Of a DNA stretch of 48,677 nt, positions 2,114 to 36,090 are shown in pieces (positions within the stretch are counted from its first letter, which is position 1; every line of letters starts with the position of its first letter). Source of the stretch: Mycoavidus cysteinexigens (lineage in GTDB: Bacteria > Pseudomonadota > Gammaproteobacteria > Burkholderiales > Burkholderiaceae); NCBI GenBank assembly GCA_031963365.1, contig JASSUF010000001.1, positions 1-48,677 on the forward strand, read 5' to 3'. The translations under genes and the position numbers were made by a program. The notes under the pieces are model-generated. The model was not told where the DNA came from. It saw nothing but the letters and a program-made list of their open reading frames with translations, and did not search any database.

Positions 2114-2198
<85 letters not shown>

Positions 2199-2230
2199 AA
2201 AAATTTTTCACTGATCGTCAAGTTTTATCC

Positions 2231-10815: not shown

Positions 10816-12716
10816 TGTCAGCCACAGAAAATTCTGCAGTCAATCTGCCGCATCCAGAATCCGAGGCCTTGGCACAACGCTGGATGCAACGGCTAGAACG
10901 CGCCAAAGATCAGTGGTCGATATGGCACAAACGCATGGCGCATAACCAGGATTTGGTGGCGGGGTTTGATGTAACACAAGATCCCGCTAGTTCAGAATTT
11001 TGTCGGTTACGGGCCAATCTGATTTTTTCGACGATAGCGGCCATATTGCCCAATATATACGCCCGTGATCCTGAAATCAGTGTCACCTCTCGCTATCCAC
11101 AGCAACGTTTATCGCTGTTTTGTCACACGTTGCAAACGGTAATTAATCGCGCGCTCCTCGATGCCAATCTCAAAGATCGCGCTAAAGACGCCGTGTCATC
11201 GGCGATGACCTGCTATTTCGGTATTGTAAAAGTGATGTATCAGCGCGAAGCACAGAGCGATCCGATGATGGCGGGGCATCTACACGATAGCGAGACGCAT
11301 AGCTCGCAGTTAACACCATTGCACCAGGATATGCATGATCCTGTAGCGGGTATCGATCAAGAAGCACAACAAGGAGAATCTGCGCAGCTTATCGCCAGTT
11401 TAAAAACACACGAGGATATAAGTCATGCAGAGGGCCTGGTTATCGATCTCGTATCGGCAGACCATTTGCTGATCGACCCCGATATCAAAGAATTTTGTAA
11501 TTTGTATCAAGCAGGCTGGATGGCGCAGCGTATTCCGATGAATCGGCAGGAAGCGCAAGCACGCTATGGCGTCGATTTACGCGGCGCGACCCCTTATAAC
11601 CAGCCCTTTGATCAAGCCACCGCTTCTCGAGATAGGCGATTGGCATCCTGCACCCCCACGCTAGATGAAGATCAACAGATATGTGTGATCGAAGTCTGGG
11701 ATCGGCGCACTGATCGCGTCTATACGCTGGTGGAAGGCTGCCCCTTCTTTGTACGTGAACCTTGGACCCCACCTCGCGTTGGGGCGCGCTGGTATCCGTT
11801 TTTTATCCTGCCGTTTTCAACGGTAGTTGGAAAACTCATTGGCCCATGCCTCGTCGATTTGACCGAAAAACTCCAAAACGAGCATAACGACACCCGCGAT
11901 AAATTTGCCGCACATCGTCATGCTAATCGTCCCCACTGGATTGTATCGACCGATACGGCGCCAGAAACCATACAACGCCATACCCAAGCCACGCTGGGCG
12001 AAATTGTATTGGTACAAAGTAATGGACTCCCTATTCAGCAAGTGATTCAACCCGGCCAAAACATACCGATCCACCCAGCAGATTATGACACCAGCCCTAT
12101 TCGCCAAGATTGGGAGCAAGTCACTGGTTTGCAAGATGCCTCGCGCTCAATGATTGCGCAAGCAAAAACAGCAACCGAAGCGGCTTTGATGGACAAAGCG
12201 CTTACAGGCCGTGTATCGGAGTTTTTAGACAAACTCAAAGGCTGGTTGCAGCAGATTGCGCAATATGTCGCACAAATGCTGTTACAGGAACTCACCCCGC
12301 AGCAGGTGCAGCGTTATATGGGGCCGCCCATTATGAGCACGCGCATTATCGAAGGTCGCTCCATAGTTGAAGAACAGCCAAGCTATGACTGGCCGGAACT
12401 CAGCAAAGCACAAGTTTTTGACATGGTGCAAGTGAGGATACGGGCAGGTACCAGCGGGGCACCCGATACGTTGGAAAAACAAAAAGCCTGGATGGAGTTG
12501 TTGCCGAAGATTGTGCCTCTTATCGAGCAATTGATGCAGCTGCGCGCCAAAGGCGAAGAAGCCGCACCATTAGAAGCGTTGTTACGCATTATCGTCAAAG
12601 TATTTGATGAGAATGAGGACGTCGATGTCGAAACGCTCATTCCAAAAATGGCCCCGCCGCCTAAGCCAGAAGGACCTGTAGAAAATGGTCTAGGTATGGG
12701 CATGTCGGCCGCATAA
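10812..12716 (+). CDS. Portal protein
   Basis: ~634 aa ORF whose ATG overlaps the terminase stop (gGATGATG). Size and position are typical of a portal. Confidence 0.7.
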   Translation: MMSATENSAVNLPHPESEALAQRWMQRLERAKDQWSIWHKRMAHNQDLVAGFDVTQDPASSEFCRLRANLIFSTIAAILPNIYARDPEISVTSRYPQQRLSLFCHTLQTVINRALLDANLKDRAKDAVSSAMTCYFGIVKVMYQREAQSDPMMAGHLHDSETHSSQLTPLHQDMHDPVAGIDQEAQQGESAQLIASLKTHEDISHAEGLVIDLVSADHLLIDPDIKEFCNLYQAGWMAQRIPMNRQEAQARYGVDLRGATPYNQPFDQATASRDRRLASCTPTLDEDQQICVIEVWDRRTDRVYTLVEGCPFFVREPWTPPRVGARWYPFFILPFSTVVGKLIGPCLVDLTEKLQNEHNDTRDKFAAHRHANRPHWIVSTDTAPETIQRHTQATLGEIVLVQSNGLPIQQVIQPGQNIPIHPADYDTSPIRQDWEQVTGLQDASRSMIAQAKTATEAALMDKALTGRVSEFLDKLKGWLQQIAQYVAQMLLQELTPQQVQRYMGPPIMSTRIIEGRSIVEEQPSYDWPELSKAQVFDMVQVRIRAGTSGAPDTLEKQKAWMELLPKIVPLIEQLMQLRAKGEEAAPLEALLRIIVKVFDENEDVDVETLIPKMAPPPKPEGPVENGLGMGMSAA

Positions 12717-12731
12717 AAGGAGTAATACACG

Positions 12732-13778
12732 ATGGAAAACGATACCGATACTGCATGGCCTTCAAGCGCAGGAGCTGCTTCCGAAGGAGAATATGACGAA
12801 GAAGCTGCAGAAGTTCCTGCATCGGCAGCAAATCCTGACACGCCAGAAGCTTCTCACTCAGACCACCCTGCACCCCGTTTGCAAGCGATGCTCGATACAT
12901 TAAGCGAAACCAAACCGGAGGAGCAATCACTAGAGGAAGCTGCAAGCGCATCAGAAGCCGAATCTACGCCAAACCCTGACGCGCCAGCAGAACCCAACGA
13001 TACGGCAGTAGATACCGAAGAAGCCGATCTCCTAAAAGGCGTGAAGTCCGAGCGCAGCAGAACACGCATTCAGAATATGTTAGCAGAGCGTCGGCAGGTA
13101 GAAGACGAGTTACAGCAGATCCGCGGTATGTTTCAAGCTACGGGAATGACGCCAGAGGAGTTAGCACAGACCTTTGAATTCGGGTCATTGGTGCGCTCGG
13201 GGGAAGCGGCAGATTTGCATACGGCGCTTCAAATGGTCGAAGCACAGCGTGCGAGCCTCTGCCAAAAACTCGGTGTAGAACTCCCAGGCGTCGATGCCCT
13301 AGCAGACTACCCCGATTTAGGGCAAGAAGTACAACAAGGCACGCTTTCCCGTGCACGGGCACTCGAAATGGCCACATTGCGTAGGCAACACCACGCCATT
13401 GAACAGCACGTTCAAACTCATACGCAAGCGCAGCAAGACCAGGTGCAATTTGAAAGAGCGGTGACGCAAGGACAGCAATCGATAGCTGCATATTTACAGC
13501 AAAACGCGCACAAAGTAGACCATGCAGCCCGTATGCAGGCAATTCAAGCGCATTTTGCACAACCGGCCAATGTGCAGGCATTTGTGCAAACGTATCAGCC
13601 CACACAGTGGGAACATGCCATTAAGTGGATGTATGAACAGATCCGTATCGCTCCTGCGTCACGCAGCATGCCAACGCCACTGCGCAGTAGCTCCGCAGCG
13701 CTGGGGCAACCTGGTATCTCTGGACAAAGCGCACCTGCAGATCGGTTAGCGCAGCGTATGGAAGCAATGGGGTTATAG
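12732..13778 (+). CDS. Scaffolding protein (putative)
   Basis: 348 aa. Acidic N-terminus and Ala/Gln/Glu-rich helical body. Located between portal and capsid genes. Confidence 0.55.
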   Translation: MENDTDTAWPSSAGAASEGEYDEEAAEVPASAANPDTPEASHSDHPAPRLQAMLDTLSETKPEEQSLEEAASASEAESTPNPDAPAEPNDTAVDTEEADLLKGVKSERSRTRIQNMLAERRQVEDELQQIRGMFQATGMTPEELAQTFEFGSLVRSGEAADLHTALQMVEAQRASLCQKLGVELPGVDALADYPDLGQEVQQGTLSRARALEMATLRRQHHAIEQHVQTHTQAQQDQVQFERAVTQGQQSIAAYLQQNAHKVDHAARMQAIQAHFAQPANVQAFVQTYQPTQWEHAIKWMYEQIRIAPASRSMPTPLRSSSAALGQPGISGQSAPADRLAQRMEAMGL

Positions 13779-13840
13779 CAAAAGGCTTTCTATTGCTTTG
13801 TAGAGATACTATTTTGAGACTTTACTTGAGGGAGTGCGTG

Positions 13841-14692
13841 ATGGTGTGCTTTCCGGTGTCTTTGTCTTTTTGCAATGGCTCTTCTTACCGTTCATTCGAT
13901 TACCCGAAGGAGCGTAAGTATCAGGAGATTTTTTCCAAACAGATTACCGCTGCTACGGGTTTTGAAAAATCTACTTCATTTACCAATCAAACGCGATGTA
14001 AGCCACCCTGCAAACGCAATATGACTAGGCAGTTGCTGGACCAATGGGGCATGGTGCAGCAAGATTTACAAGAAGATGCTTGGTTTCGCCAGTCAGGACT
14101 GGAAACCGCGCAGCAAGATTACCTGGCATGCTTACTCCAGGAATATAAACAAGCATGCGAGGATCTGCAGCCATCCGCAAAGGCCTGCTTATATGTTGAA
14201 GAACAGGATGCGATTTTAGACCGCCTCTGCCATTTAAATGCAGTCATGCAGGAAATAGAAATATTTTTTGAGGACTGTAGCCCTCGGGCCAAAGCACAGC
14301 AATCGGTCTTTTATCTGTCGGTGGCTATTATTGTAGCGGGGGTGTTTTCAGCAGTGATTATCCAAGCGGTGGGAATAGTCTGTACAGCAACGGCGCTGGT
14401 TTCTATTTTGTCGGCGTGTAGTCTAGCCTGTCTGCGGTTGGTGTATGTGCTCTATGAACGCGATATTGCCCACGCACATGCGCAGTGGGAAAGGCGTAGA
14501 AGGCAGTGGAAGACGCTGGAAAAATACTTTGCGCTATTTTGGTGGAAGGAAATAATAAGCGCGCTAGGCAAAGAACAGCTTAAAGGATCCATAAAAGCAA
14601 AACAGCGTGATACTACCATTCGTGCAGTAAGGCGCTATCCTCAAAAAATGCGTTTTACTTGGGTACGGTCTAAAAGAAGGCGGTCTGGATGA
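13841..14692 (+). CDS. Cargo membrane protein with bilobed hydrophobic domain
   Basis: SD gggag before the ATG at 13841. Hydrophobic hairpin VFYLSVAIIVAGVFSAVIIQAV-GIVCTATALVSILSACSLACLRLVYVLY. Basic C-terminus. Interrupts the scaffold-capsid junction. Confidence 0.55.
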   Translation: MVCFPVSLSFCNGSSYRSFDYPKERKYQEIFSKQITAATGFEKSTSFTNQTRCKPPCKRNMTRQLLDQWGMVQQDLQEDAWFRQSGLETAQQDYLACLLQEYKQACEDLQPSAKACLYVEEQDAILDRLCHLNAVMQEIEIFFEDCSPRAKAQQSVFYLSVAIIVAGVFSAVIIQAVGIVCTATALVSILSACSLACLRLVYVLYERDIAHAHAQWERRRRQWKTLEKYFALFWWKEIISALGKEQLKGSIKAKQRDTTIRAVRRYPQKMRFTWVRSKRRRSG

Positions 14693-14741
14693 TCAAAACC
14701 CTATATATGGTGCTTTAACAGTGTTTTTATCTCTAAAGGAT

Positions 14742-16049
14742 TTATCCATCATCCATTTCTATATCTTGCATAACATATACAGACTCTAAATCTTTATTTC
14801 TGCGCTCCACGTCAGGAAGTGGCTGCGCGCCATTAAAACGGATATCCATAAAATTTATTTTGTGCGAGTATGGAATGGCCGCCATTAAATTATTAACGCC
14901 TACATCACCGATGTTATTATAACAAATATTTAATGAATATATTCCTTTTTCTAATATTTTCAATATGTATTGTATCCCTACATGGCTAATTCTATTGGTG
15001 TATAAATCTAATTTTTGAAAATTTTTATACAAATAGGATCCCTCCATTTTTTCTATGAGAATCATACTTAAACTTTTAACCCCTTCGTCCCCAATATCGT
15101 TTCCTCCAAAGGATAATACTTTAAGACTTATCGGTAAAATTCCTATCAATAGTTTTATATCTTCATCACGGATGCCAACGCCCTCCAATCGCAAATCAGA
15201 AATAGTTGATTGTGTAAAATTGGAAATAAAATCTTTTACCCAACCGGGTTGAATATCTCCAGAAGAACAAAAAGAAGGAGCAGAAAACATAGCGCTTCTA
15301 GTAAATTCAAAACTTGAAATCGTGTTTTTAATTTCAGGTCCAAGAGCTAACAAATTCTGCGCGATAAAATTGCTATATCTTAAAGAAAACTTCGTCTCTC
15401 TTATACTTCTACAGCTCTTAAGAAGCTGTATGATTCTATCAATAATAGAATTTTCAGCGGTATATATAAAACCTGCATCAAAATATAAACTTTCAAGATT
15501 TTGTTTGTTTTCCATCGCTTGTAGTGTTGTAAAAAATCGATGGATATCTACAGCGTGCAAAATAATATTACTATCCTCTATGTCATAATTACCCATCGAA
15601 CTAATCTTGATATGCACATGCTGTATATTTTCAATCACTTTTTCAATGTTATATTTAATTTCCTCCTCGGTTAATGTATTATTATTTCTTGTAATGGCAT
15701 CAATTTTTTCACCACTCCATTTTTCTTGGGCTTGACTCCATATAGATCGCGCGTACGTATCTGTTGTCGCAAGCAAACTACGTATCACTCCGCAGAATGG
15801 AGGGCTTATTAGCATCAATTCGATAAAATCTTTTGGAGTCGATAAAGAGTGCGATAAAAAATCGAATATTTGCAACGCTATTTCATTAGGTAGAGGAGGC
15901 AAAGCTTGGCGACTGTATTTTTCCAAAGAAAATTTTTGAGGTGCAGCCTGTGCTATTTCCTGTGATGGTTGGACTGGATTTTCAGAAGGAATATATTGAG
16001 TAGGGAAACATGGAGTGGAAACACGCGACACATTATTAGAGTTCATCAT
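14742..16049 (-). CDS. F-box + leucine-rich-repeat (RNI-type) eukaryotic-like protein, moron 1
   Basis: F-box motif LPPLPNEIALQIFDFLS...FIELMLISPPFCGVIRSLL. C-terminal LRRs LKVLSFGGNDIGDEGVKSLS, LDLYTNRISHVGIQYI, LNICYNNIGDVGVNNLMAAI. Antisense to the late operon and AT-rich. Confidence 0.8.
   Translation of the reverse strand: MMNSNNVSRVSTPCFPTQYIPSENPVQPSQEIAQAAPQKFSLEKYSRQALPPLPNEIALQIFDFLSHSLSTPKDFIELMLISPPFCGVIRSLLATTDTYARSIWSQAQEKWSGEKIDAITRNNNTLTEEEIKYNIEKVIENIQHVHIKISSMGNYDIEDSNIILHAVDIHRFFTTLQAMENKQNLESLYFDAGFIYTAENSIIDRIIQLLKSCRSIRETKFSLRYSNFIAQNLLALGPEIKNTISSFEFTRSAMFSAPSFCSSGDIQPGWVKDFISNFTQSTISDLRLEGVGIRDEDIKLLIGILPISLKVLSFGGNDIGDEGVKSLSMILIEKMEGSYLYKNFQKLDLYTNRISHVGIQYILKILEKGIYSLNICYNNIGDVGVNNLMAAIPYSHKINFMDIRFNGAQPLPDVERRNKDLESVYVMQDIEMDDG
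15762..15902 (-). other. F-box motif region of moron 1 protein (aa ~50-96)
   Basis: LPxEI..xIFxFL followed by a hydrophobic helix pair, matching the F-box consensus LPdEil..Il..L......l.lVsk.w..l. Confidence 0.7.
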
Positions 16050-16560
16050 TTATCCTATTGCATCAAGTACATGCATCTATTGCATAGATACATAACACCA
16101 ACCAAAAATCAGCCTCCTAGGTGTATGAATTTGAACATTTCTATCAGGCACTACTACCTAATACACTCAGGTCTTTTACTAGGAAATGTATTTTTAAAAA
16201 AATACCACCGTATTTAAAATACCGTGCACACTGCACTTTGTAAAAAATCTTTTACTTTGCAATCTGCAGACTGAATCGCTGGAAGCCGAGCGTCGCGTGC
16301 GGCAGCTGTGGGTTAAAAAAGTAAAGATTGCCCACCGCAATGTGTCGCTGTGATCGCCGGGGTCGCGTCCGGTAGCGCTTTTCTCATGCACTATTTATAC
16401 AAATAGTTTGCAATGGAGTTGTACCCTTGCAAGCGCTGTGAGCATTATTTTCCCGTGTGGCGTGCGGGGCCGGTGTGGAAAGTAGGCCGTTTATGACGTG
16501 CAGAATTTTTTCTCTGCGTGGCTAAAACGGTCATGGTGCTTTTTCCACTGGATACTCAGT

Positions 16561-17607
16561 ATGCCTATCTCTGCGCATGATCTACGCGAACTGACCAAAG
16601 TCTCGCTCGACGACTATTTACGCAATATCCCCATCGATCAAATCGGTGTGGAGCGCCCACTCCTGAAACGCTGTTTATCCAAGCGCAAACTCTTTTTTGG
16701 AGCACGCCAGCATATCGTCGAGAACGTGCGTAAAGACTATGGCAGTCATTTCGCCTGGGCTTATGGCGAAACCCTGGTTGAATTCAATAAACGCCATACC
16801 ACGGAGCAAGTGCAATTTCCGTGGCGACGCGCCGTAGATGGACTGTATTTAGACTATGACCGCCTCTTCGGTGCGGGTATTGACGTACGCGAAGGCAAGC
16901 ACGGCGAACATCGACTCGAGCAGAATGAGAAAGTGCAACTGCTCAATTTGCTCGATGAGCAAATGGAAAGCCTCAAACTGGGGTTTTTAGATCGCTTAGA
17001 TACCGAGCTACATCGCGATGGCACTTCTTCTGCGGATGCGGTAACCGGCCTCGATGCGCTCGTATCGGTTGATCCTTCTAACGGCATATTAGGCGGCCTC
17101 GATCGAGAAAAAATGCCATGGTGGCGCAATACCACCTATACCGGCATTGAAACTGGCCGTTCAGGCAATTTGAGTATGCATATGGAGCAAGCTTGGCGGC
17201 GCTGTATTCGTAATGGCGGCGCGCCCGATTTTATTTTGGCGGGATCCGCTTTTTTAGATGCGTATCGACAAGAAATCAGGGTGGTGCAAAACGCGGAAGC
17301 AGCGCGTCCTAAAACGCTCGATGCCGGCGTGGGGACAGCAGGCAGTACCGGTCTGTACTTCAAAGGCGTAGAAATCGTCTGGGACCCGCACTTTGAAACC
17401 CTCGATGCACTCGAAACCCCGCTGATTCCATGGGAAAAGCGCTGTTATTTCCTCAATTTCAAATATTTTAAATATCGCGATGATGATGTACATATCGTCA
17501 CCCCGACGCGCCCCCATAACACGCTCGCACTCTACGCAATGATTACGGTGCGCTGTGCGCTCACGATGTCGCGTGCCAATGCGCATGCGGTTTTGGCGAT
17601 TCAATAG
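16561..17607 (+). CDS. Major capsid protein
   Basis: 348 aa from MPISAHDLRELTK (a GTG at 16498 is possible). Position after portal and scaffold. Sequence character typical of podovirus/HK97-fold coat proteins. Confidence 0.7.
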   Translation: MPISAHDLRELTKVSLDDYLRNIPIDQIGVERPLLKRCLSKRKLFFGARQHIVENVRKDYGSHFAWAYGETLVEFNKRHTTEQVQFPWRRAVDGLYLDYDRLFGAGIDVREGKHGEHRLEQNEKVQLLNLLDEQMESLKLGFLDRLDTELHRDGTSSADAVTGLDALVSVDPSNGILGGLDREKMPWWRNTTYTGIETGRSGNLSMHMEQAWRRCIRNGGAPDFILAGSAFLDAYRQEIRVVQNAEAARPKTLDAGVGTAGSTGLYFKGVEIVWDPHFETLDALETPLIPWEKRCYFLNFKYFKYRDDDVHIVTPTRPHNTLALYAMITVRCALTMSRANAHAVLAIQ

Positions 17608-17617
17608 AGGAGCGGCA

Positions 17618-17944
17618 ATGATGATGCATTGTGATTTACACCACATCCGTGTGCGCCGAGATGCGCAGACGACCACCCCCACGACGATAGCCGCCCATGA
17701 ATTGCCTATTTTGCAGGTGCTCTATGGGATAGAGAATGTGGAGGATAGCGCGTTAACGGGGACGTATCCGATTGATGAAAAGCAAGAATATAAACGCTTG
17801 ACGCTCAAATTCGGAGAAGAAGTGGTACGTAGCATTTATGGCGAGGAGCATAGCGGTCAGCTTGCGCAACGCTTACAGCAAACCGCTAAATCAGCGTCCA
17901 AGAGCAGATCTTCTACTGTTGTCTCTACGCCTTCGGCATCATAA
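17618..17944 (+). CDS. Small virion-associated protein (unknown)
   Basis: SD agaggag before the ATG at 17618. Directly downstream of the capsid gene. Confidence 0.45.
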   Translation: MMMHCDLHHIRVRRDAQTTTPTTIAAHELPILQVLYGIENVEDSALTGTYPIDEKQEYKRLTLKFGEEVVRSIYGEEHSGQLAQRLQQTAKSASKSRSSTVVSTPSAS

Positions 17945-17950
17945 GGAGGA

Positions 17951-19243
17951 ATGATGCAAGCTCCCCGCTACGAACGCCGTAAAAACTTTATGCAGGATAA
18001 CGGCGACCAAACGGACCATGTTGCGCTGAATGCTGAGTTTGATGCAGCCTCGCTCTCCATCAATGGCTTACGCCAAAATCTCTCGCAAATACAACGCGAT
18101 GATGGTGCCTTGCAAGATGGGATTGTCGATGCAGATACGGTTTCCAACCGTTTTAAAGAAGAGCTGATTCAACATCTGTCGAAAAACATTGATGGACGCT
18201 TAGAAGAAAGCCGTAAAGCAGCCAAGCAAGCGAATGCTTCTGCGCAGGCGGCACAACAATCTGAGAACCACGCACAACGAAGCGAAACCGCTGCGCACAC
18301 GGCTAGTAAAAAAGCACAAAGCGCCTGTGAGGAATCTCAACACGCTGCTAAAGAGGCTGCGCTCAGTGCCCACGCTACCGAAAATGCGCATGCTGGCGCG
18401 CAAGAAGCAGCCGATAAAGCCGCTCTTGCACAAAAACATGCCTCCTATTCCAGTAAATCTGCCGCTGTGCATGCGCGTCATGCTGCGCAAAGCGCACACG
18501 CAGCACAGCTAGATGCCACCCTTGCCAATCAAGAAGCCGAACGCGCCAGCCAATCTATGCATGCAGCAGCCCATTCTGCAGGCGAAGCGCGGCGCCTAGA
18601 AAAAATCGTACGGCAGAAAGTCGATGAGGCCACACAACTCGGCACACCCGCAGATCATACGGTCAGCACCGATAAATTAGTCCATGGTGCGGTAACTCAA
18701 GATAAATTAGGCGAATGGGCAGTAACAACCGATCACCTACTCGATGAAGCAGTAACCAGCACAAAGCTTGCGGTAGGTGCAGTTGCTGAACATCTGGGCT
18801 ATACGCCTGCCAATATGGAAGATACCTGGACCCGATCCAATTTTGATCCAAACACCAAACTTAATAATACGGGCGATCAAATTCTGGCAGGCCAACTCAT
18901 GCTTGAGTCCTGGTTAGGGCTTCAAGATACTGAAAGCGGTGCAGTGCGCGGCATTTTGCATCGTAACGATGCAGTGGGATTTATAGATCAAGATGGGCAA
19001 TGGAAGCTGCGCATAGAAAAGGATGATGCAATTTGGACAGGCAAATATGGGTATTTGCATACCGCCTTTACACCCAGTAGTGCTATGGCGCTCAACGGCG
19101 TAGGCAGTCTGCAATTGATCAGTTTAACCAATCCGGTTCCTGCTGATGGAGCCATCATTACCGTTCCCAGTCGCCCAGGTTCCTGGCGCATCCTATGTAA
19201 TTCAGGTTGGGGCGCTATACGTTTATTGGTGAGGGTCGCATGA
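17951..19243 (+). CDS. Tail fibre protein
   Basis: SD aaggagg. N-terminal motif HVALNAEFDAASLSINGLRQNLSQIQRDDGALQDGIV is typical of phage tail fibres. Long Ala/Gln/Ser-rich coiled coil. Followed by an assembly chaperone. Confidence 0.65.
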   Translation: MMQAPRYERRKNFMQDNGDQTDHVALNAEFDAASLSINGLRQNLSQIQRDDGALQDGIVDADTVSNRFKEELIQHLSKNIDGRLEESRKAAKQANASAQAAQQSENHAQRSETAAHTASKKAQSACEESQHAAKEAALSAHATENAHAGAQEAADKAALAQKHASYSSKSAAVHARHAAQSAHAAQLDATLANQEAERASQSMHAAAHSAGEARRLEKIVRQKVDEATQLGTPADHTVSTDKLVHGAVTQDKLGEWAVTTDHLLDEAVTSTKLAVGAVAEHLGYTPANMEDTWTRSNFDPNTKLNNTGDQILAGQLMLESWLGLQDTESGAVRGILHRNDAVGFIDQDGQWKLRIEKDDAIWTGKYGYLHTAFTPSSAMALNGVGSLQLISLTNPVPADGAIITVPSRPGSWRILCNSGWGAIRLLVRVA

Positions 19244-20600: not shown

Positions 20601-20605
20601 GGGCT

Positions 20606-21991: not shown

Positions 21992-22005
21992 AAGAGTACT
22001 TCTGA

Positions 22006-23169: not shown

Positions 23170-23312
23170 GATTTCCTCACTTTTTACGAGCCAAAAATTA
23201 AATTTTTGAATTTATTCTTAATAAGCAGTAAATGCAAACTGCATACTGATTAAAAAACATTTATTTTTTCATTTTTGCCTATCTACATCAGGCCAAAAGA
23301 TAGGAGCTGCAC

Positions 23313-29223: not shown

Positions 29224-30432
29224 TTAGGCCAGAGCATGTACATTTGCAGCTACGTAAGAGGACTCACTTGAATCCGTATAGCCGGATGCAGACATGTCAC
29301 TATCCCCTTCTGTAGACGAAGAGCCATGCTCGTCCAATGTGGGCATTACAAGAGCATTTTCCACAGGAGGCTGGGGAAGAGGAAGAGAAAGCGATTGTGA
29401 AGGGTCAAAATCTTGGTGTAGCGGCAACGTTGGATTCATCGGCACCCTATCTATAGAGTTCGTTAGAGAAGTGGACTGAGTACCTGCCTGAAGGAGTGCG
29501 GTATCGCTGCCATTTTCCTGATGACGGTTACTTTGACTGGTAACCTGGCTACTGCTATGACCTTGCTCAAGAGCATGTAATCGTTCAGAGAATGCATTAA
29601 GTTGAGCAAGCAAATTTTGGTTTATTAACTGCTGCTGTTGATTTGTTTGCCTTAATTCTGCAATTATTTCTCCACTTTGCTTGACTTCTATTCTTAATTG
29701 CGCATTAAGGCTCTTCAATTGTTTAACTTCATTTTCTAATTGTTTATTTTGATTTCTTAATTTTGTATTTGCATTTGTATTTCTTAATCGCGTATTTTTG
29801 TTTTGTAATATTCCGTGAGGCTCTTCTGAAGTTTTGATGCGATTATTTAATTTCGCTACTAACATCTCACTTCCAGCAGCAGTATTGGATGCGGTTTCAC
29901 TGACTACGGTTTGGGTTACGCTTCCCACCCCTGTTTGCGGTACTTCAAAAGGTGCAAGTGCAGTTTCTTCGATTTCAAGGCGGTATGGCATTTCGCTGCT
30001 TGGAACAGATAGAGTACTGTTGTTTTGATTTGCTGGTTCTATATCAGCATTTCCTTCGCCAATACTCACTGTTGGGGCAATAATAGCGCTAGCTGCTGTC
30101 GTATTGGATTCAGTAACATGGGCCGCAATGGCACCAATAGGAGGCGAGGTTTCTGGTCTTTGACGAGGTAAGGGTGCAGTTTGTTTGGCTTCAAATTTTT
30201 CTGACGCCATCGGGTTTGAGGTGAATGTTTTTTTACTATTCTGGTCTTCTATTGGGAGTTGTGCTATATAGGCAACGCTGGATCCACCAAGAAGGGTCGC
30301 GGCAACAGCAGCGCCGCCCGCTATCGTAGTGCTTGATCCAGAACCCGCAGCTGTGATAGCGGCGGCGGCCGAGGCGCTTCCCATTTGTGATAACACAGCA
30401 AATGCACCAATTCCAGCAAGAGGTAATGGCAT
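29224..30432 (-). CDS. Cargo protein: N-terminal Ala/Gly-rich double hydrophobic segment + Gln/Asn-rich coiled coil + Ser/Asp/Glu-rich tail
   Basis: SD ggag. LAGIGAFAVLSQMGSASAAAAITAAG and IAGGAAVAATLLGGSSVAYIA. Heptad region LRNQNKQLENEVKQLKSLNAQLRIEVKQ...LLAQLNAFSERLHALEQ. Confidence 0.6.
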   Translation of the reverse strand: MPLPLAGIGAFAVLSQMGSASAAAAITAAGSGSSTTIAGGAAVAATLLGGSSVAYIAQLPIEDQNSKKTFTSNPMASEKFEAKQTAPLPRQRPETSPPIGAIAAHVTESNTTAASAIIAPTVSIGEGNADIEPANQNNSTLSVPSSEMPYRLEIEETALAPFEVPQTGVGSVTQTVVSETASNTAAGSEMLVAKLNNRIKTSEEPHGILQNKNTRLRNTNANTKLRNQNKQLENEVKQLKSLNAQLRIEVKQSGEIIAELRQTNQQQQLINQNLLAQLNAFSERLHALEQGHSSSQVTSQSNRHQENGSDTALLQAGTQSTSLTNSIDRVPMNPTLPLHQDFDPSQSLSLPLPQPPVENALVMPTLDEHGSSSTEGDSDMSASGYTDSSESSYVAANVHALA

Positions 30433-30820
30433 AGATCACTCCAGTGAGTACGTGTTTATGAAATACTTTTCAGCTTTGCGTCGCTTTTAAGTTTTACAGA
30501 AAACCTCATTGGCTAGAACTACATCTGCATATGCTGCTTGGAATAGCATGTACCTAATAAAATAATGGCCAAGACAAAAAATATTAATACAGTGATCTAG
30601 CAGGGATAGGTTTAATCAATCTCTACTGCTTATCAGCGCAATGACGGATACCCAATAGAAGAAAAAATATCCAAAGTATTCAGATAAAGGTATTGCTCCT
30701 ACATCTACCTCGTTTGCAGGCGATAAAAGCGACTCCTGCGCAATACCATAAAGTTAAAAAACGATAAGCAGTATCCGGCCAAGACCTGTTAATAACCAGC
30801 TGGCTTTGTGGACCCAAACT

Positions 30821-32467
30821 ATGGACCGTATCACGCCTATTCCTTCTCCAACACTTCCTGCAACCGCAGCTAAACCCATCGCCTGCGAAGATGCCCTATG
30901 GGTTCCGCTCCCTGAGCAAGATGTAATAGAGCGCAATAGCCTTATTGCTATCGAAGCATGGCAAAAGCTATTTACTGATTTGCCGCTTGAAATAGTGTCA
31001 ATAATTTTTACAGAAACATTATTTGGTCTAACGCTCAATGAAATATTGAATATTGCAGAATATCAAAGAGGGAAACTCAAACCTGAGGCTTGGTCCGCAC
31101 TCTATAAAGCTAGTATTTTTTGTTTTGGCTCAATAGAAGAGCTATCAGAGTGGCTCTCTAATCCTAAACAGTTTCGGAATTTTGTCGAAGATGCGCAAAA
31201 ATACGGAGATAAAACCCTGCGGCAAATCTTTTATGGATTACAACTGCTGGAAAAAACAAAAGACTCGATAACCATTGAAGATTGTATGCGTGCTGGAATG
31301 ATAGATAGAGAGCGTATCTGTTCAGAAAATGCATTACCAAGTATTAGGGGCGAGCAAGATTTTTTATCGTGGCTCTGTGGAAAAAAAGCGCGTATAGTAA
31401 TTTGTTTACGTTGGCTTCCTGCGCAAACCCACAATCCTGAAGCTCGTAATCCTGATTTACTAGAAGAAGCAGTAAAACAAGGTAATTGCACGATAGTAAA
31501 GCAAGTATGCGCCTATATGAAAAAGCATAGGCTGCATGATGGGGCTGTCCTTCACCCATGTCGAAATGCATTATGGAGAGCGGTTATTGATAATGATGTC
31601 CCAATAGCACAATATTTATTCGACGAATTTCCAGATTTTCGGTTCACTCAAGGTCTTCTACAAATTTCTGCAGCAGAAGGATGTTTGCCTATGGTTCAAC
31701 TGCTTATAGAAAGAAAAATAGAAATTAATGAACTAGATGACTATCAAAAAACGGCCTTGCAGACAGTAATAGGTACCTTCTATCCATATCAGCTTTCTCC
31801 TTCATATTGGTTAGGATTTGATGAGGAGGGGCGTCAAAAAACCCTCGATCAATTAGATGTGATTATTTTTTTACTGCGTCAATATGTTGATAAAGGACTT
31901 GATTTTGATATTAACTGGGAATTGCAAGAACAAAATACTTTTTTGCATATGGCTTGTTATGTGCAAAACCCTGACTCTGCAGAATGGTTAGCACAGTTTA
32001 TATTGGAACAGCAAAAGGATAAAAACCTGTTCGATACTCAAAATGAAGATGGGAAAACGCCTTTCATGTGTGCATTAGAGGCTGATAATTACCCTATGTA
32101 TACTTTTTTGCAAGAACAGCAGGCGAAGCGAGTGTTAGGAACCGAGAGATTTCCCCTTCTTTCTCGAGAAGAGTTTCAAGCTTTACGAACAGCGTCGAAT
32201 AGAACATCCTCAACGCCACCTTCCACAAAGCCCGTCTTGCCTGCTTCCACTAGTATTCAAAACGACCCTCCTGTTGCTGTTCAGCCTCGCATTACAGCTT
32301 CCTATGCACCTTCTGCGCAAGAGATCTCTTGGCTACACACATGGGTGCAAGCCTTTGTTGATTTATCAAAATATCTGCTCACGATGGTGTTCTTTATTCC
32401 CCGTACTTTGTATGTCTTCTACCTCAATGTCATACAAGCTTGGATAAGTAGAGTGAGTGAAAGGTAA
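30821..32467 (+). CDS. F-box + ankyrin-repeat protein with C-terminal hydrophobic anchor
   Basis: F-box LFTDLPLEIVSIIFTE. ANK-like units (LLEEAVKQGNCTIVKQVC, ALWRAVIDNDVPIAQYL, LLQISAAEGCLPMVQLLIERKIEINELDDYQKTAL, NEDGKTPFMCALEADNYPMYTFL). C-terminal YLLTMVFFIPRTLYVFYLNVIQAWI. Confidence 0.75.
   Translation: MDRITPIPSPTLPATAAKPIACEDALWVPLPEQDVIERNSLIAIEAWQKLFTDLPLEIVSIIFTETLFGLTLNEILNIAEYQRGKLKPEAWSALYKASIFCFGSIEELSEWLSNPKQFRNFVEDAQKYGDKTLRQIFYGLQLLEKTKDSITIEDCMRAGMIDRERICSENALPSIRGEQDFLSWLCGKKARIVICLRWLPAQTHNPEARNPDLLEEAVKQGNCTIVKQVCAYMKKHRLHDGAVLHPCRNALWRAVIDNDVPIAQYLFDEFPDFRFTQGLLQISAAEGCLPMVQLLIERKIEINELDDYQKTALQTVIGTFYPYQLSPSYWLGFDEEGRQKTLDQLDVIIFLLRQYVDKGLDFDINWELQEQNTFLHMACYVQNPDSAEWLAQFILEQQKDKNLFDTQNEDGKTPFMCALEADNYPMYTFLQEQQAKRVLGTERFPLLSREEFQALRTASNRTSSTPPSTKPVLPASTSIQNDPPVAVQPRITASYAPSAQEISWLHTWVQAFVDLSKYLLTMVFFIPRTLYVFYLNVIQAWISRVSER
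30968..31105 (+). other. F-box motif region of the ANK protein (aa ~50-95)
   Basis: LPlEIvsiIF then LtLnEILniae. Weaker second half than in the two LRR proteins. Confidence 0.55.
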
Positions 32468-32544
32468 ACTCAACCATTGCGCAATATAGAAAGTGCAGCT
32501 AACCCAAAGAGAATAATGTTTTTATCTTTATAAATAAATATTTA

Positions 32545-32584
32545 CGAAAAAATAGCCCTTCTTCAAAAAAGAGCTATTTTTAGA
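32545..32584. terminator. Putative bidirectional terminator between convergent cargo genes
   Basis: aatagc (32551-32556) pairs with gctatt (32573-32578), plus inner tctt/aaga. A-run upstream and T-run downstream. Confidence 0.4.
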
Positions 32585-32631
32585 GGACATTAATTTACTT
32601 TTAGATTTATTGTACGGGAGAGAGAGGGGGA

Positions 32632-34074
32632 TTACCCTAATTTATTTATTAATTTTGCTATTAACTCATCTTTCTGAGCCAGTTGTTCTTTTAGTCGTGC
32701 ATTTTCCGCTATCAAATCAGCATCTGGGCTAGAAGAGGCAGAACGAGAGACGAGAAGTTGTTTGACTTCGTCCAGCTCTTTCTGCAATTGAGCAGCGCCA
32801 TTATTGAAGGCAGTAAAAATGTGATCTTGTTGCGCACCAATGGCCGACTTAATATCTTTAACTTGATCAGTGCTCATTTTTAATACACCTTTACCTTTTA
32901 ATACTTTGAGTAATGCGGGGAGAATCTTATCCCTTAATTGTATACGAATAAGATTCTCCTTTCCAAATTGTTCGTTTTTTTGTATCTCTCTAACAGGAGT
33001 GAAGGCTGAAGGGAGGTTGAGGAAGGCGACAATGTTTCCTCCTACCAAAGGAATAAAAGCAATAAGTGTTTTAAGCGTAGCAAACCAAGCGGCGAAAGTC
33101 GTCCATTTCTTGCGAGCTTCGTCTTCTTGCTTTTGGATAGTATCGAAGTACGCAGCTTGTGCTTGAGCCAATTTATCAAATGGCAGCCATAACTGATCAG
33201 TAGAAAGCCATACAGATTCCGTAGATTCTTCTAAAGAGTTAGAACTTGCCCCACTCTCGATGATAGAAGGGGTTATCAAACGGCCATTATGGTCCTCAGA
33301 GGGTAAAATTTCACTTATTTTACGAGGAAGGCGCACTCCTTGAGAAGGATGTAACAATAGCTCTGGGTATCGCCATAAAGAAGAAAGCGTCTCTTGGATT
33401 TCAATACGAGTACGATGTATAAGTGAAGCATCTGCGCAGAGCTGCTGCATAGATACATTACGCTGACCTTCATTTCTATTTGCAAGGATATGCTCTGTAA
33501 AGAGAGCATCTAACGAATCTTTGGCTTCTTCTAATGCTTTTTTGGCCGATTGACCGTAATTATTTAATGCATCGCTACCTGGTTTGATAAGCGCCATGCC
33601 CATCTGCGACGCAGATTGCGCTTTTGTCGCAGGCTTTTTATGGCCAAGGAGCCAATAGGCATGAGCACGTGATTTACTCAGTGATCCATCTGGTTCAAGC
33701 TGCGCAATACGGGTATCGATCTGCTGACTAGTTAAAGAATACAGCGTTTTTTCATACGCTGTTTTAGCCTTAGCCGCTTTATTTGAGCGATACTCTTCCA
33801 TATGACGTCTAGAAGAATGTAATAGCGCATTCTGCGCTTTCAGGGCTTTGAGAGACCTTTCTATTTGACTAGGGACAAAAGAACAAAATGGCTCACAGAG
33901 ATGCGCTAATGAAGTAGTAGGAATATGTTTGCCAAATAGTGGATGCCCTTTCTCAAATACGGGTAAATTTTCTTGGAATTCTGGAGGATCTTGTAGCGTG
34001 AGCTCAACACAGGCGGCCTGCGAGGAAAAGATCGCATGATCTATGGGTATTCCACCTGCGCCAGTAATTCGCAT
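32632..34074 (-). CDS. Cargo protein: large helical protein with internal hydrophobic hairpin and C-terminal coiled coil
   Basis: SD aggag, 480 aa. FAAWFATLKTLIAFIPLVGGNIVAFLNLPSAF. C-terminal LIAENARLKEQLAQKDELIAKLINKL. Confidence 0.6.
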   Translation of the reverse strand: MRITGAGGIPIDHAIFSSQAACVELTLQDPPEFQENLPVFEKGHPLFGKHIPTTSLAHLCEPFCSFVPSQIERSLKALKAQNALLHSSRRHMEEYRSNKAAKAKTAYEKTLYSLTSQQIDTRIAQLEPDGSLSKSRAHAYWLLGHKKPATKAQSASQMGMALIKPGSDALNNYGQSAKKALEEAKDSLDALFTEHILANRNEGQRNVSMQQLCADASLIHRTRIEIQETLSSLWRYPELLLHPSQGVRLPRKISEILPSEDHNGRLITPSIIESGASSNSLEESTESVWLSTDQLWLPFDKLAQAQAAYFDTIQKQEDEARKKWTTFAAWFATLKTLIAFIPLVGGNIVAFLNLPSAFTPVREIQKNEQFGKENLIRIQLRDKILPALLKVLKGKGVLKMSTDQVKDIKSAIGAQQDHIFTAFNNGAAQLQKELDEVKQLLVSRSASSSPDADLIAENARLKEQLAQKDELIAKLINKLG

Positions 34075-34221
34075 ACGTTCTCCTAATAAAGCACCTCCTC
34101 GGAGATACTATGATTAAGCATATGGAAGATTTTTTTCAGCAGGTATACGGCTAATACCTGGAAGATAAGATTTGGCAAAACGCTGAATACGCTTTAGTTT
34201 GGTAACAAAATACGATGCAAA

Positions 34222-34261
34222 AAGTCCCACATCCTCAAAAAAACTGAAAACATGGGACTTT
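34222..34261 (-). terminator. Possible terminator after the 321-aa cargo gene
   Basis: On the minus strand agtccca pairs with tgggact (long loop), followed by ttttg. Confidence 0.35.
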
Positions 34262-34286
34262 GGCGATCTAAAAAAAGCCATGTTAA

Positions 34287-35252
34287 TTAGGCTAGATCCT
34301 CAATAGATTTAAGCACTATTCGAGCCTGCTCTAAAGGGATGCCTGATTTGGTGAGAGCTTGCTTTAAAATCTCCTTGGAAACGTAATCAGCATGGTTAGC
34401 AGACTGCACTTGTTGGGCTGCCTTGACTTCCGCTAGCTCACGCTGCATGTTTTGCATTATTCGATTCATATTTTCAATTTTGTTATTAACACTCATATTG
34501 TTTCTCAACGATTCTTCTAATTGGGCTACAAATTGATTAAAAAGATTTTTGTGTTTATTAAGGTGAATACGCCGCTCACCTTCTATCTGCGCAATTAAAA
34601 ATCGATAAAACTGCACATATACCGAGATAAACACAAAGCATTTCCCAAACAGAGCCGCCATGCTTGCTGAAATCGCCAATGCGATACACAGTTGCGCGCA
34701 AAGCGGTGCAATAAGGGGCATTAAAATCAAGGTTGCTGTAAACAAAAATACAAAACGACTAGTTTTTTGTTCCTCCGATTCAACCTTAAATTCCTCGTAG
34801 CACTTGGCAAATTTCAGCATGACTTTATGCAAACACGCTAAATTGGCTTCAATTTGGCTGCTTTCTTCAGGTGATAAAGCAATTTCCTCCGTAGTTACTA
34901 ATCCATCAGGCAAGGGAGGCATCTCTGATTGAATGCTGATGCCTTTTTCTACCCACTGCATAAGCGGCTGACAGGCTTTAGCGAAGTTAGAAAGCACGGC
35001 TGCGAACTTGGCCTCCTCCACTTCTGATAAACCTCGGCCGCAATACCAGTTATCTTCCTTCAATACAGTCTTTATGCACGTCCATTGCTCTGAAACTTGT
35101 TCATACAAACTGCACTCTGGTTCGATAATTTCTGGATCGATAAAGCCGCATTCAGATTGGCTTTTACTTTCAGTAACAGCGGGGCTGGGAAAAAAAGGAA
35201 TGTTGAATGTTGAGATGCCTCTTGCCTGCAAAGTGTGCAGGAAGGAAGACAT
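34287..35252 (-). CDS. Cargo protein with central bilobed hydrophobic domain and C-terminal coiled coil
   Basis: SD gggagg. FVFLFTATLILMPLIAPLCAQL-CIALAISASMAALFGKCFVFISVYV, then LEESLRNNMSVNNKIENMNRIMQNMQRELAEVKAAQ. Confidence 0.6.
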   Translation of the reverse strand: MSSFLHTLQARGISTFNIPFFPSPAVTESKSQSECGFIDPEIIEPECSLYEQVSEQWTCIKTVLKEDNWYCGRGLSEVEEAKFAAVLSNFAKACQPLMQWVEKGISIQSEMPPLPDGLVTTEEIALSPEESSQIEANLACLHKVMLKFAKCYEEFKVESEEQKTSRFVFLFTATLILMPLIAPLCAQLCIALAISASMAALFGKCFVFISVYVQFYRFLIAQIEGERRIHLNKHKNLFNQFVAQLEESLRNNMSVNNKIENMNRIMQNMQRELAEVKAAQQVQSANHADYVSKEILKQALTKSGIPLEQARIVLKSIEDLA

Positions 35253-36074: not shown

Positions 36075-36090
36075 TCTTCCGGGTACCAAA
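36075..36090. repeat. attR core (tRNA-Leu 3' fragment)
   Basis: Exact copy of 2185-2200. Confidence 0.85.

Follow-up and report, generated by a model that had tools for sequence, protein, structure and literature searches.

Legionella AnkB, Ralstonia GALA and Agrobacterium VirF are translocated bacterial F-box mimics that hijack the host SCF ligase. In phage WO of Wolbachia, the eukaryotic association module (EAM) includes ankyrin and F-box-related PRANC genes, is polymorphic between prophage haplotypes and is thought to act on the eukaryotic host (PMC5062602). In the chlamydial NEX1a proteins, an N-terminal F-box(-like) domain is combined with a conserved region of ~50 aa and a C-terminal set of LRRs that varies in number (Domman et al. 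2014, PMC4209131); NEX1 is not reported on phages, and the word "phage" occurs 0 times in that paper. The closest analogues of the prophage-borne F-box-like/LRR genes presented below are the phage WO EAM and the F-box-LRR family NEX1 of chlamydiae.

Mycoavidus is a Burkholderia-related endobacterium that lives inside Mortierella (soil fungi), and almost nothing has been described of the tools by which Burkholderia-related endobacteria manipulate Mortierella. No paper connecting Mycoavidus to F-box proteins came up in a full-text literature search, and the terms LRR, ubiquitin and ankyrin are absent from the text of the published comparison of Mycoavidus prophages. The window analyzed here is a stretch of 48,677 nucleotides from Mycoavidus cysteinexigens (assembly GCA_031963365.1, contig JASSUF010000001.1). 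An integrase, a tRNA-Leu and a 16-bp att repeat delimit a prophage at ~2185-36090 of this chromosome piece. It is integrated at the tRNA-Leu(CAG) gene (2114..2200, plus strand, ARAGORN), the 3' end of which serves as attL (2185-2200, plus strand, TCTTCCGGGTACCAAA); the second copy of this exact 16-mer, for which ~0.001 chance matches are expected, is attR at 36075..36090 on the plus strand and marks the right prophage end. The backbone phage genes have a GC content of 0.49-0.54 (~51%), and the portal gene matches phrog_12082. Inside the att repeats, the right end carries cargo of lower GC content (29224..35252, GC 0.41-0.45), including an ankyrin-repeat protein gene (30806-32467, Pfam Ank_2 at 4.6e-14). 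The region 12000-18000 had no blastn match among 50,697 phage records, and in tblastn the capsid protein had nothing closer than Mx8, Mx9 and a Microcystis phage, at 21-28% identity. One AT-rich gene in the structural block of this element is most likely no virus part but an exchangeable gene for manipulating the host.

This gene lies between two conserved late genes. The left edge is the putative scaffold gene (12732..13778, plus strand), which is assigned by its position between the portal and capsid genes; it has no family match in Pfam or PHROG, keeps 41-50% amino acid identity in relatives and stands there immediately 5' of the capsid leader. The right edge is the major capsid protein gene (16561..17607, plus strand), which is recognised by phrog_9953 "major head protein" (2.6e-36) and has 809 homologues, among them P0002 at 99% identity; the relatives at 99% and 76% identity come from Mycoavidus cysteinexigens BRE-AD058 and BRE-AD051, in support of Mycoavidus as the host. 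Its reading frame opens at GTG 16498, and the ATG at 16561 (MPIS...) is the start in all homologues. An earlier note on this DNA, made from the letters alone, had held that scaffold and capsid genes are normally adjacent, and this is borne out by 13 cargo-free relatives, in which the gap measures 237-710 bp. The gap is 406 bp in prophage L002, prophage L003 has PhD/PIN there, and both cargo slots are empty in BRE-AD051. In other relatives the slot contains PhdYeFM+PIN, Fic/DOC, AbiEi, RNase T or subtilase+AAA. Since the junction holds either a short gap or unrelated cargo, it is a cargo slot, and the term moron used in the earlier note is correct; the comparison of related phages proposed there was run, and the cargo is not kept as a structural component. 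This temperate phage carries 13779-16195 as accessory cargo, or moron.

As in the classical prophage morons (lambda bor/lom, HK97-family), an extra gene of odd GC content stands on the opposite strand between conserved late genes and is absent at the same position from related phages (L002, L003 and the 13 relatives). Two differences from the classical morons were found, in that sister phages carry different paralogs from a single effector family in the same slot and the insertion site is set by a conserved structured RNA leader. This leader, located 5' of the capsid gene at 16341..16480 on the plus strand, belongs to the phage backbone and not to the cargo. Five helices are predicted, with an invariant GGGGTCGCGTCC hairpin at 16357-16368 and GGTGTGGAA at 16472-16480, and in relatives the spacing between the motif and the capsid ATG is constant. 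Pairing holds in 91% of the alignment cells, compared with 43-50% in slid controls, and compensatory changes occur at 9 pairs. An Rfam search of the locus and four relatives gave no match for the leader. On this covariation support, 16341..16480 is a structured leader conserved across Burkholderiales prophages and has no Rfam entry. The slot boundary, directly 3' of the scaffold stop and directly 5' of the structured leader, is one that tolerates insertions across the whole phage lineage. The junction is a cargo hot spot common to a phage lineage widespread in Burkholderiales, its boundary marked by an apparently undescribed structured RNA.

The first gene in the slot encodes an accessory membrane protein of 283 aa (13841..14692, plus strand, with the ORF from 13793/13841). 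The assignment as a membrane protein holds, as a single unbroken hydrophobic stretch of 52 residues (aa 154-205) fits a two-helix hairpin. This gene is not foreign by composition: its GC content of 0.466 is backbone-like and thus, unlike that of its neighbor, not distinct, and the gene is 84% conserved in the sister prophage L001. It is absent from L002 and L003. No family was found for the protein in Pfam, PHROG, NCBIfam or PADLOC. Small membrane proteins are well known as exclusion factors of prophages, and the protein possibly has a role in superinfection exclusion. It could be proposed on this basis, and because the PhdYeFM+PIN, Fic/DOC, AbiEi-like and subtilase+AAA cargo of related slots is of defence or toxin type, that the whole cargo serves the phage or bacterium, through superinfection exclusion, anti-phage defence or counter-defence. 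We regard this as improbable. Neither the LRR protein nor the membrane protein matches a PADLOC or NCBIfam family, and therefore defence is disfavoured; the LRR protein also lacks any domain of enzymatic or effector type. Members of its family occur only in an endohyphal bacterium, together with eukaryote-like genes of the ankyrin, WD40 and NACHT kinds. Furthermore, the structural matches of the LRR protein in a viral library all come from giant viruses that infect eukaryotes, with no phage among them.

The second gene, on the minus strand at 14742..16049, encodes a protein of 435 aa, which is described here as an F-box-like/RNI-type LRR protein and candidate secreted effector. The reading frames and their positions were exact in the earlier note, and its hand counts of G+C (22/60, 15/60 and 38/60) were reproduced without change. 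Its view of this gene as antisense and foreign in composition is upheld by a GC content of 0.339 and a GC3 of 0.278, compared to 0.49-0.54 in the backbone. Of the spacer 16050-16560, one part is AT-rich as described (16050-16229, 33.9% GC), but the part called GC-rich (16230-16560) is at the backbone level with 49.2%. The AT-rich 5' region of the gene (16050..16195, minus strand) has an AGGA Shine-Dalgarno site 5 nt 5' of the ATG, and the gene presumably uses its own promoter in this region. In consensus scans, 11 promoter-like sites (8.3±3.3 expected) and 4 terminator-like sites (2.5±1.9 expected) were counted, both at chance level.

The LRR solenoid covers codons ~140-430 (14760..15632, minus strand) and comprises ~9-10 predicted strand-helix units, of which the last four are of the canonical RI type. 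That the repeats are RNI-type LRRs is supported by Pfam LRR_6 (27.0 bits against a gathering score of 23.4), and the pattern L.L..N.IGD.G...L is canonical at aa 312, 347 and 373. In the AF2 model (pTM 0.72), strand-helix units extend from residue 144 to 402, with pLDDT mostly 80-97 in the solenoid. A PDB sequence search with phmmer gave ribonuclease inhibitor (RNH1, 1.1e-6) and NOD2 as the best matches. Similarly, Foldseek found ribonuclease inhibitor, NLRP and NOD2 at ~1e-7, with RNH1 (1a4y_A) at 1e-7 and a TM of ~0.45-0.48, and FBXL17 in its SKP1 complex (6w66_B) followed at rank 12 (E 5e-7), below RI, NLR and axonemal LRR proteins. Thus both features of RI-like LRRs are present, namely LRR_6 with the LxxLxLxxNxIgdxG consensus in units of ~26-29 residues, and a curved alpha/beta solenoid, and on the basis of sequence and model we are confident that the protein carries an RI-type LRR solenoid.

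The F-box is more difficult. The F-box-like segment lies at codons ~50-95 (15765..15902, minus strand; LPPLPNEIALQIFDFL...FIELMLISPPF...LL) and is predicted to form three helices, at residues 55-67, 72-81 and 83-94 in the AF2 model, where confidence is low (pLDDT 41-63). In Pfam tests with PF00646 and PF12937, the F-box-like match reached 14.5 bits against a cut-off of 24.3 (E 0.031) over residues 53-67 only, below the gathering threshold. In other family members, the best PF00646 match had an E of 0.005, and weak F-box or F-box-like matches occur in up to 3/7 of the members that have the N-terminus. When a profile of the family N-termini was aligned by hhalign with nine Pfam-verified F-boxes, the probability was 83.7%, compared with a usual bar of ~95%, over 37 aligned columns in H1 and H2 (E 8e-6, score 29.2). 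Shuffled controls had a mean score of 8.2 (sd 1.8, maximum 15.4), so that 0/200 reached 29.2, and the reversed profile scored 10.8. The P, E, I and L of the family motif LPxE..I...L are invariant. On the other hand, the family does not conserve the Trp that is canonical in helix 3 of the F-box, and 10-14 aa are inserted between helices 1 and 2. No F-box was found by Foldseek with the full model or with a second AF2 model of the N-terminal half, for which nothing matched at E < 0.05 and the best, non-significant matches were tropomodulin/leiomodin LRR caps. PDB sequences searched by hmmsearch with a profile built on the N-terminal 244 aa yielded no F-box protein and only non-significant SecA matches. 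The F-box proposed in the earlier note therefore stands in part: the hhalign result, its controls and the invariant LPxE..I speak for it, whereas it is sub-threshold in Pfam and was not found by Foldseek. We consider an N-terminal F-box in the F-box/LRR protein probable from these comparisons.

The FBXL/Skp2 architecture named in the earlier note was likewise retained only at the level of domain order, because the LRRs resemble those of ribonuclease inhibitor and NLR more than those of Skp2/FBXL. As in the eukaryotic FBXL substrate receptors (Skp2, FBXL17), an N-terminal F-box-like segment precedes an LRR solenoid; unlike in FBXL, whose LRRs are of the cysteine-containing class, the best matches are the LRRs of ribonuclease inhibitor, NLRP and NOD2, and there are extra residues between helices 1 and 2. 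Such LRRs act by binding alone in ribonuclease inhibitor and NLR. It is conceivable, though unlikely, that the protein is a binding effector or decoy acting through its LRRs only, the N-terminal helices being a family-specific cap or localisation module with no Skp1 binding and no hijack of a ligase. The sub-threshold Pfam score, the lack of an F-box in the Foldseek and PDB profile searches and the LRR caps among the non-significant matches of the N-terminal model would all agree with this. It accounts less well for an hhalign match to verified F-boxes that is far above the shuffles and falls on the invariant LPxE..I motif, for independent weak Pfam F-box matches in several very divergent members, and for the order of F-box-like segment, conserved linker and LRR, which mirrors chlamydial NEX1a (PMC4209131).

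We therefore favor, as the somewhat better supported reading, that the moron cargo of this Mycoavidus prophage includes an F-box-like/LRR effector that is exported to the fungus and hijacks SCF. The analysis establishes gene structure, LRR fold, foreign composition, slot variability, replacement of paralogs and host, whereas we infer F-box function, secretion, target and expression in the lysogen. The protein would be produced in the lysogen and delivered to the cytoplasm of the fungus, where the LRR surface would bind a fungal target and the F-box-like segment would dock on the Skp1 of the fungus, leading to ubiquitination of the target by the hijacked SCF ligase. T2SS, T3SS and T4SS are reported to be encoded in Mycoavidus genomes (PMC5877345). 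This proposed action is the same as that of AnkB, GALA and VirF, but those proteins rely on ankyrin repeats or on a GALA-type LRR of 24 residues, their F-boxes are recognisable, and none of them is cargo of a phage structural module.

The F-box/LRR gene is a member of a Mycoavidus-only multigene family, in which family alignments distinguish at least 9 divergent paralogs. The layout is fixed, with a disordered N-terminus, the F-box-like three-helix segment (LPxE..I ... LMLVS..F), a helical NIQH linker and the RI-type LRR solenoid, and GC is 28-34% in all members checked. A word-indexed search of 5.8 billion proteins with the F-box/LRR protein returned only itself. An exhaustive HMMER search found the family members, and most of its 763 matches span the LRR region alone; for the N-terminal and linker regions, all matches are to Mycoavidus proteins. 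Aligned as a whole, the family shows no conserved stretch. A scan of IMG/VR and JGI metagenome contigs with a subfamily alignment found no relatives.

These results bear on the suggestion of the earlier note that the gene is eukaryote-derived, for which no support was obtained. RI-type LRRs and F-boxes occur mainly in eukaryotes, a fish NLR-like protein and a green alga are among the best LRR matches outside the family, and the composition is strongly unlike that of the phage, all of which could be read as a recent direct capture of the gene from a eukaryote by the phage. We judge this very improbable. There is no close eukaryotic homologue, and the eukaryotic matches, with 31-38% identity over ~110 aa, are confined to the generic LRR region, whereas nothing outside Mycoavidus matches the N-terminal and linker regions. 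The many divergent bacterial paralogs imply long residence in the lineage, and the genes are without introns and have bacterial Shine-Dalgarno sites. Moreover, the GC content of the family is unlike that of Mortierella nuclear DNA, which is roughly 48-50%. On this evidence, a recent eukaryotic origin is unsupported.

The likeness to phage WO can now be stated more exactly. Both are prophages of intracellular bacteria with genes for eukaryote-like interaction domains, here LRR, F-box-like and ankyrin in an att-bounded element, with the ankyrin gene near the attR end. In contrast to phage WO, the host is a betaproteobacterial endosymbiont of fungi instead of an alphaproteobacterium of arthropods; the phage lineage is unrelated, with a capsid family common to free-living Burkholderiales; the F-box-like/LRR genes are single-gene cassettes in the structural block and not a dedicated, contiguous module at the end of the element; and no sequence is nearer to eukaryotes than to bacteria, the closest full-length relatives all being from Mycoavidus. 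With chlamydial NEX1a the family shares the domain order and the character of a lineage-specific, rapidly diverging family of an intracellular bacterium, but no homology is detectable outside the LRRs and the Mycoavidus family is much smaller (~9 members). The idea of phage-carried tools aimed at eukaryotes may thereby be extended from Wolbachia and arthropods to a bacterial-fungal symbiosis.

The content of the slot differs between near-identical prophages. In blastn against the sister prophage L001, the window is 91.7% identical up to 14553 and 91.3% identical from 16181, with no match between. The segment without DNA similarity, 14554..16180, is the exchanged cassette and runs from the 3' part of the membrane gene through the complete F-box/LRR gene to a point 130 bp upstream of the latter. 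At the protein level, the gene product is collinear with, and 25% identical to, the paralog in the same slot of the sister prophage. A second cargo slot contains a further paralog of 387 aa (P0271; 22006..23169, minus strand, GC 0.314, Pfam LRR_1 22.6 bits against a cut-off of 20.6), and the exchanged segment there, 21994-23340, has no alignment with L001. The sister prophage thus has paralogs of ~25% identity in both slots, and these, together with the 91%-identical flanks, point to cassette exchange. In-situ hyperdivergence of one orthologue was considered and rejected, since the 25% identity is uniform across the gene and the change to the 91%-identical flanks is abrupt at the breakpoints; it is also countered by a chromosomal copy of the slot-2 gene in the sister genome, P0273, which is 66% identical to P0271.

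The paralogs P0273, P0274, P0152 and P0134 lie outside phage regions; some of them have ankyrin, WD40 or NACHT genes as neighbors, and others are surrounded by housekeeping genes. Because different paralogs occur in one slot of near-identical prophages and paralogs also occur in chromosomal islands, the phage slots are most likely exchangeable cassette sites that diversify and mobilise the effector repertoire. The locus thus yields concrete candidate effectors that are phage-borne and apparently traded as cassettes between sister prophages and chromosomal islands. A broader proposal, which we hold only tentatively, is that the prophages are shuttles and swap sites for a rapidly diversifying family, confined to this lineage, of SCF-hijacking F-box-like/LRR effectors and a fungal-symbiosis counterpart of the phage WO EAM, the cassettes being traded between chromosomal islands and two fixed slots in the virion block, one of them set by the structured RNA leader.

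No convincing recombination sites or repeats common to the cassette borders were found. The border signals consist of the flank homology to L001 and, in slot 2, of a cassette 3' end that is homologous to the L068 chromosomal copy. The promoter-proximal regions of L068 and L069 are similar to each other, and the slot-2 5' region of the window resembles both by eye.

The window comes from a bacterial chromosome and carries a prophage; it is not a free phage genome. The left end of the prophage is marked by a tRNA-Leu(CAG) gene (2114-2200), the first gene of the integrated element is a tyrosine integrase (2362-3684), and because the 16-mer TCTTCCGGGTACCAAA at the tRNA 3' end is found again at 36075-36090 as a 16-bp direct repeat, the prophage is placed at about 2185-36090 (approximately 33.9 kb). 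Housekeeping genes flank the element (acetolactate-synthase-like TPP enzyme, pcnB, panB, ilvA, radA, alr and thiD). Capsid relatives are found in two Mycoavidus cysteinexigens MAGs, BRE-AD058 (99%) and BRE-AD051 (76%), and a third, 68% identical, in M. cysteinexigens itself; the window and BRE-AD058 prophages share 91% DNA identity. On the strength of the prophage and of the LRR gene family described below, and not of the chromosomal flanks, the host is assigned to Mycoavidus, a group of Burkholderia-related endobacteria living in Mortierella. Their prophage content is reported to be unusually high, with prophages at approximately 49% GC, and their genomes to encode T2SS, T3SS and T4SS (PMC5877345).

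The ORF list of the window contains all the features that an earlier note had described at the scaffold-capsid junction, each in its place: a membrane protein ORF on the plus strand (13793/13841-14692) and a 435-aa LRR protein ORF on the minus strand (14742-16049). Their left neighbor, a 348-aa ORF (12732-13778), is called the scaffold by position only, because the gene preceding it matches portal PHROGs and the capsid gene follows. The latter matches phrog_9953 "major head protein" (2.6e-36), and all capsid homologues start with MPIS, equivalent to ATG 16561. Three G+C counts made by hand in the earlier note (22/60, 15/60 and 38/60) were exact on recount; the foreign composition proposed there holds for the LRR gene (GC 0.339 and GC3 0.278, versus GC 0.49-0.54 in the virion genes) but not for the membrane gene, whose GC of 0.466 is not anomalous.

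By retrieving 63 loci encoding capsid relatives and locating the scaffold homologue in each, the junction was compared across related phages. The gap between the two genes is just 237-710 bp in 13 relatives, including those of Quisquiliibacterium, Tepidimonas, Achromobacter, Pusillimonas, Sutterella, Polaromonas, Oxalobacter and Mycoavidus BRE-AD051. In M. cysteinexigens, it is occupied by a PhdYeFM+PIN pair, and in Polynucleobacter prophages by Fic/DOC, AbiEi-like, RNase T, subtilase+AAA and tautomerase genes. Since the gap is either short or filled with unrelated cargo, the junction is a cargo hot spot across the phage lineage, and the view of the inserted genes as a moron is borne out. In the Polynucleobacter prophages L022, L025, L032 and L033, the slot repeatedly holds Fic/DOC-domain genes, often in minus-strand orientation, and the subtilase+AAA ATPase pair, found in L025, resembles a defence system. 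The site of insertion is sharply defined: where relatives lack cargo, the stop codon of the scaffold gene leads directly into a conserved block beginning with TGAACAAAAATCC, which in the window follows the cargo on its 3' side, at approximately 16199. This block (approximately 16197-16236 in the window, and about -300 from the capsid ATG in L007, L009, L011, L014 and L015) reads TGAACAAAAATCC, N9-10, CTTGAC, about 6 nt, RATAAT, about 10 nt and CCAGTTC. The block might serve capsid transcription as a promoter or a protein-binding site, with a spacing unlike that of sigma-70 promoters.

The spacer between the LRR and capsid genes is AT-rich over 16050-16229 (33.9% GC), as previously described, whereas its second part (16230-16560), which had been called GC-rich, is at 49.2%, the level of the backbone. 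Sequence comparison identifies this second part as a conserved structured element of the phage backbone. A leader of approximately 140 nt with five predicted helices lies on the plus strand at 16341-16480, upstream of the major capsid gene, and an additional hairpin lies ahead of it at about 16283-16303. Relative to the capsid ATG, an invariant GGGGTCGCGTCC hairpin keeps a fixed position at -140 to -150, an RTCGCGY hairpin, whose loops are repeated in the leader, lies at -95, and GGTGTGGAA, which forms the 3' strand, lies at -44. This spacing is kept in relatives from Mycoavidus through Oxalobacter and Sutterella, and the leader is also present at -230 to -40 in L002, L003, L007-L017 and L044-L056. 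In an alignment of 18 sequences, 91% of cells are paired in the five-helix structure, compared with 43-50% for slid partners; covariation scores 0.28 versus 0.05-0.09, and compensatory changes occur in nine pairs. The invariant G-U pairs point to a plus-strand RNA. Neither the window nor four relatives gave an Rfam match, and the leader seems to be a so far undescribed cis-acting RNA in a prophage lineage found widely across Burkholderiales. In the window and the BRE-AD058 phage only, an insertion of approximately 55 nt (16481-16540) separates the leader from the capsid ribosome-binding site; it is hairpin-capable (GCAGA-ATTTTTTC-TCTGC inside CCGTTT...AAACGG).

Another finding concerns a second cargo site, slot 2, where an AT-rich paralog of the LRR gene (22006-23169, minus strand, GC 0.314; product P0271) lies between the gene for a 461-aa virion protein and the next late gene. 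Slot 2 carries no cargo in the relatives from BRE-AD051 and M. cysteinexigens, and in BRE-AD058 it is occupied by another paralog, approximately 20% identical. The window and BRE-AD058 prophages are 91-92% identical over 7717-14553 and 16181-21993, with zero alignment over 14554-16180 and 21994-23340, and these non-aligning segments are exactly the two LRR genes plus their 5' regions. At the junction, the LRR proteins of the two prophages are collinear but only 25% identical, between neighbors that are 84% (membrane protein) and 99% (capsid) identical. P0271, in turn, is 66% identical to the product of a chromosomal, non-prophage gene of BRE-AD058. Divergence in place was considered; flanks at 91-92%, junction proteins at 25% and a chromosomal copy at 66% are better explained by replacement of the LRR genes by paralogs. 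A search of the cassette borders revealed no recombination site in common. In one subfamily (P0271, the chromosomal paralog P0273 of BRE-AD058, and P0274), the promoter-proximal sequence ...AAATTTATATAATTAATTTTTCAGTC..AAAGTGAGATAATC-ATG is conserved (window 23170-23230, minus strand; L068 7780-8000; L069 7780-8000), and the cassettes therefore appear to travel with their own 5' regulatory region. The capsid gene is present in at least five truncated copies in the Mycoavidus MAG BRE-AD086, on separate high-coverage contigs (L057, L058, L059, L065 and L066), some of them beside a membrane-protein homologue (31-52%) or a homologue of the slot-2 LRR protein (37%); these look like decaying, rearranged prophages of the same type.

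In an exhaustive HMMER search, a few proteins aligned with the LRR protein over its full length, beyond the LRRs alone. The aligned family comprises the LRR protein, P0271, two sister-prophage proteins, P0152, P0134, P0212, P0273 and P0274. Members with an N-terminus share a common order of F-box-like LPxE..I, LMLVS..F, an NIQH motif and LRRs. All members checked have a GC of 28-34%, and every traced member (all but P0212) comes from a Mycoavidus assembly. Several are non-prophage, each a single AT-rich gene, some neighboring ankyrin, WD40, NACHT and HEAT genes and others amid housekeeping genes, for example following the sdh operon or beside selO. No relatives of the best-conserved subfamily were found in IMG/VR and JGI metagenome contigs, and in the literature no paper connected Mycoavidus with F-box proteins, LRR co-mentions being incidental only. 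The earlier note had suggested possibly eukaryote-derived DNA; for a recent capture of the LRR gene from a eukaryote, no evidence was found. Eukaryotic protein matches are limited to generic LRRs, and within Mycoavidus the family has a long history and has diversified.

The assignment of the repeats to the ribonuclease inhibitor type, on the other hand, was confirmed. Pfam LRR_6 matches at 27.0 bits (threshold 23.4), and among PDB sequences ribonuclease inhibitors (1.1e-6) and NOD2 match best. In an AF2 model built from the family alignment of nine sequences (pLDDT 73, pTM 0.72), residues ~140-430 form a strand-helix solenoid predicted with confidence. Foldseek matched this model to RNH1, NLRPs, NOD2 and axonemal LRR proteins (E ~1e-7), with SKP1-bound FBXL17 at rank 12. 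In a viral structure library, all significant matches were LRR or F-box proteins of eukaryote-infecting giant viruses, and none was a phage protein. The LRRs belong to the RI/NLR type and not to the FBXL type.

The F-box part of the earlier claim fared less clearly. Pfam F-box-like scores 14.5 bits at residues 53-67, below the cut-off of 24.3. A PDB search with a profile of the N-terminal half found no F-box protein, and Foldseek with the N-terminal model gave no significant match; AF2 confidence at residues 55-95 is low. In favor of an F-box, AF2 places three consecutive helices there (55-67, 72-81 and 83-94), LPxE..I...L is invariant across seven very divergent members, up to three of these seven have weak, independent Pfam F-box matches, and hhalign of the family N-terminal profile against nine F-boxes (each confirmed genuine by Pfam) gave 83.7% probability, E 8e-6 and a score of 29.2, compared with a mean of 8.2 (sd 1.8, maximum 15.4) for 200 column shuffles and 10.8 for the reversed profile. 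The poor Pfam score is attributable to a 10-residue insert that the alignment requires between helices 1 and 2. By curated criteria, the protein is not demonstrably an F-box family member, and we give the segment an even or slightly better chance of being a genuine Skp1-binding F-box.

The best-supported reading is that the cargo is a lysogenic-conversion cassette for a eukaryote-directed LRR protein, for which we infer secretion, expression and target. The LRR surface would bind a presumed fungal target, and the F-box-like segment may recruit fungal Skp1 and thereby lead to ubiquitination of that target. Such a route is likened to those of Legionella AnkB, Ralstonia GALA and the chlamydial NEX1a family (PMC4209131); NEX1a is also a parallel to the LRR protein in architecture. 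A rival reading is an LRR-only binder without SCF hijacking. A defence or exclusion function inside the bacterium is disfavored by the lack of PADLOC matches and by the distribution of the LRR family; for the membrane protein, which matched no family in Pfam, PHROG, NCBIfam or PADLOC, superinfection exclusion is a reasonable guess.

Compared with known systems, the cargo is grouped with the eukaryote-like effector genes that prophages of intracellular symbionts carry; its two unusual features are the swapping of paralogs at fixed slots within the virion-gene block and the undescribed RNA leader at the insertion boundary. In function and ecology, it comes nearest to the eukaryotic association module of Wolbachia phage WO, where ankyrin and F-box-related PRANC genes are found (PMC5062602). 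The window prophage, too, has an ankyrin gene close to attR. This gene (30806-32467, 553 aa) lies in a right-end cargo block inside the prophage (29224-35252, GC 0.41-0.45) that is reminiscent of the WO module. Three ORFs of the block (402, 480 and 321 aa) have weak matches of coiled-coil type only, and the 321-aa ORF faintly matches a type IV secretion effector family (E 0.0047). Outside the prophage, between ilvA and radA, an AT-rich single-gene island on the minus strand (41629-42213, GC 0.328, GC3 0.231) encodes a coiled-coil-like protein of 194 aa.
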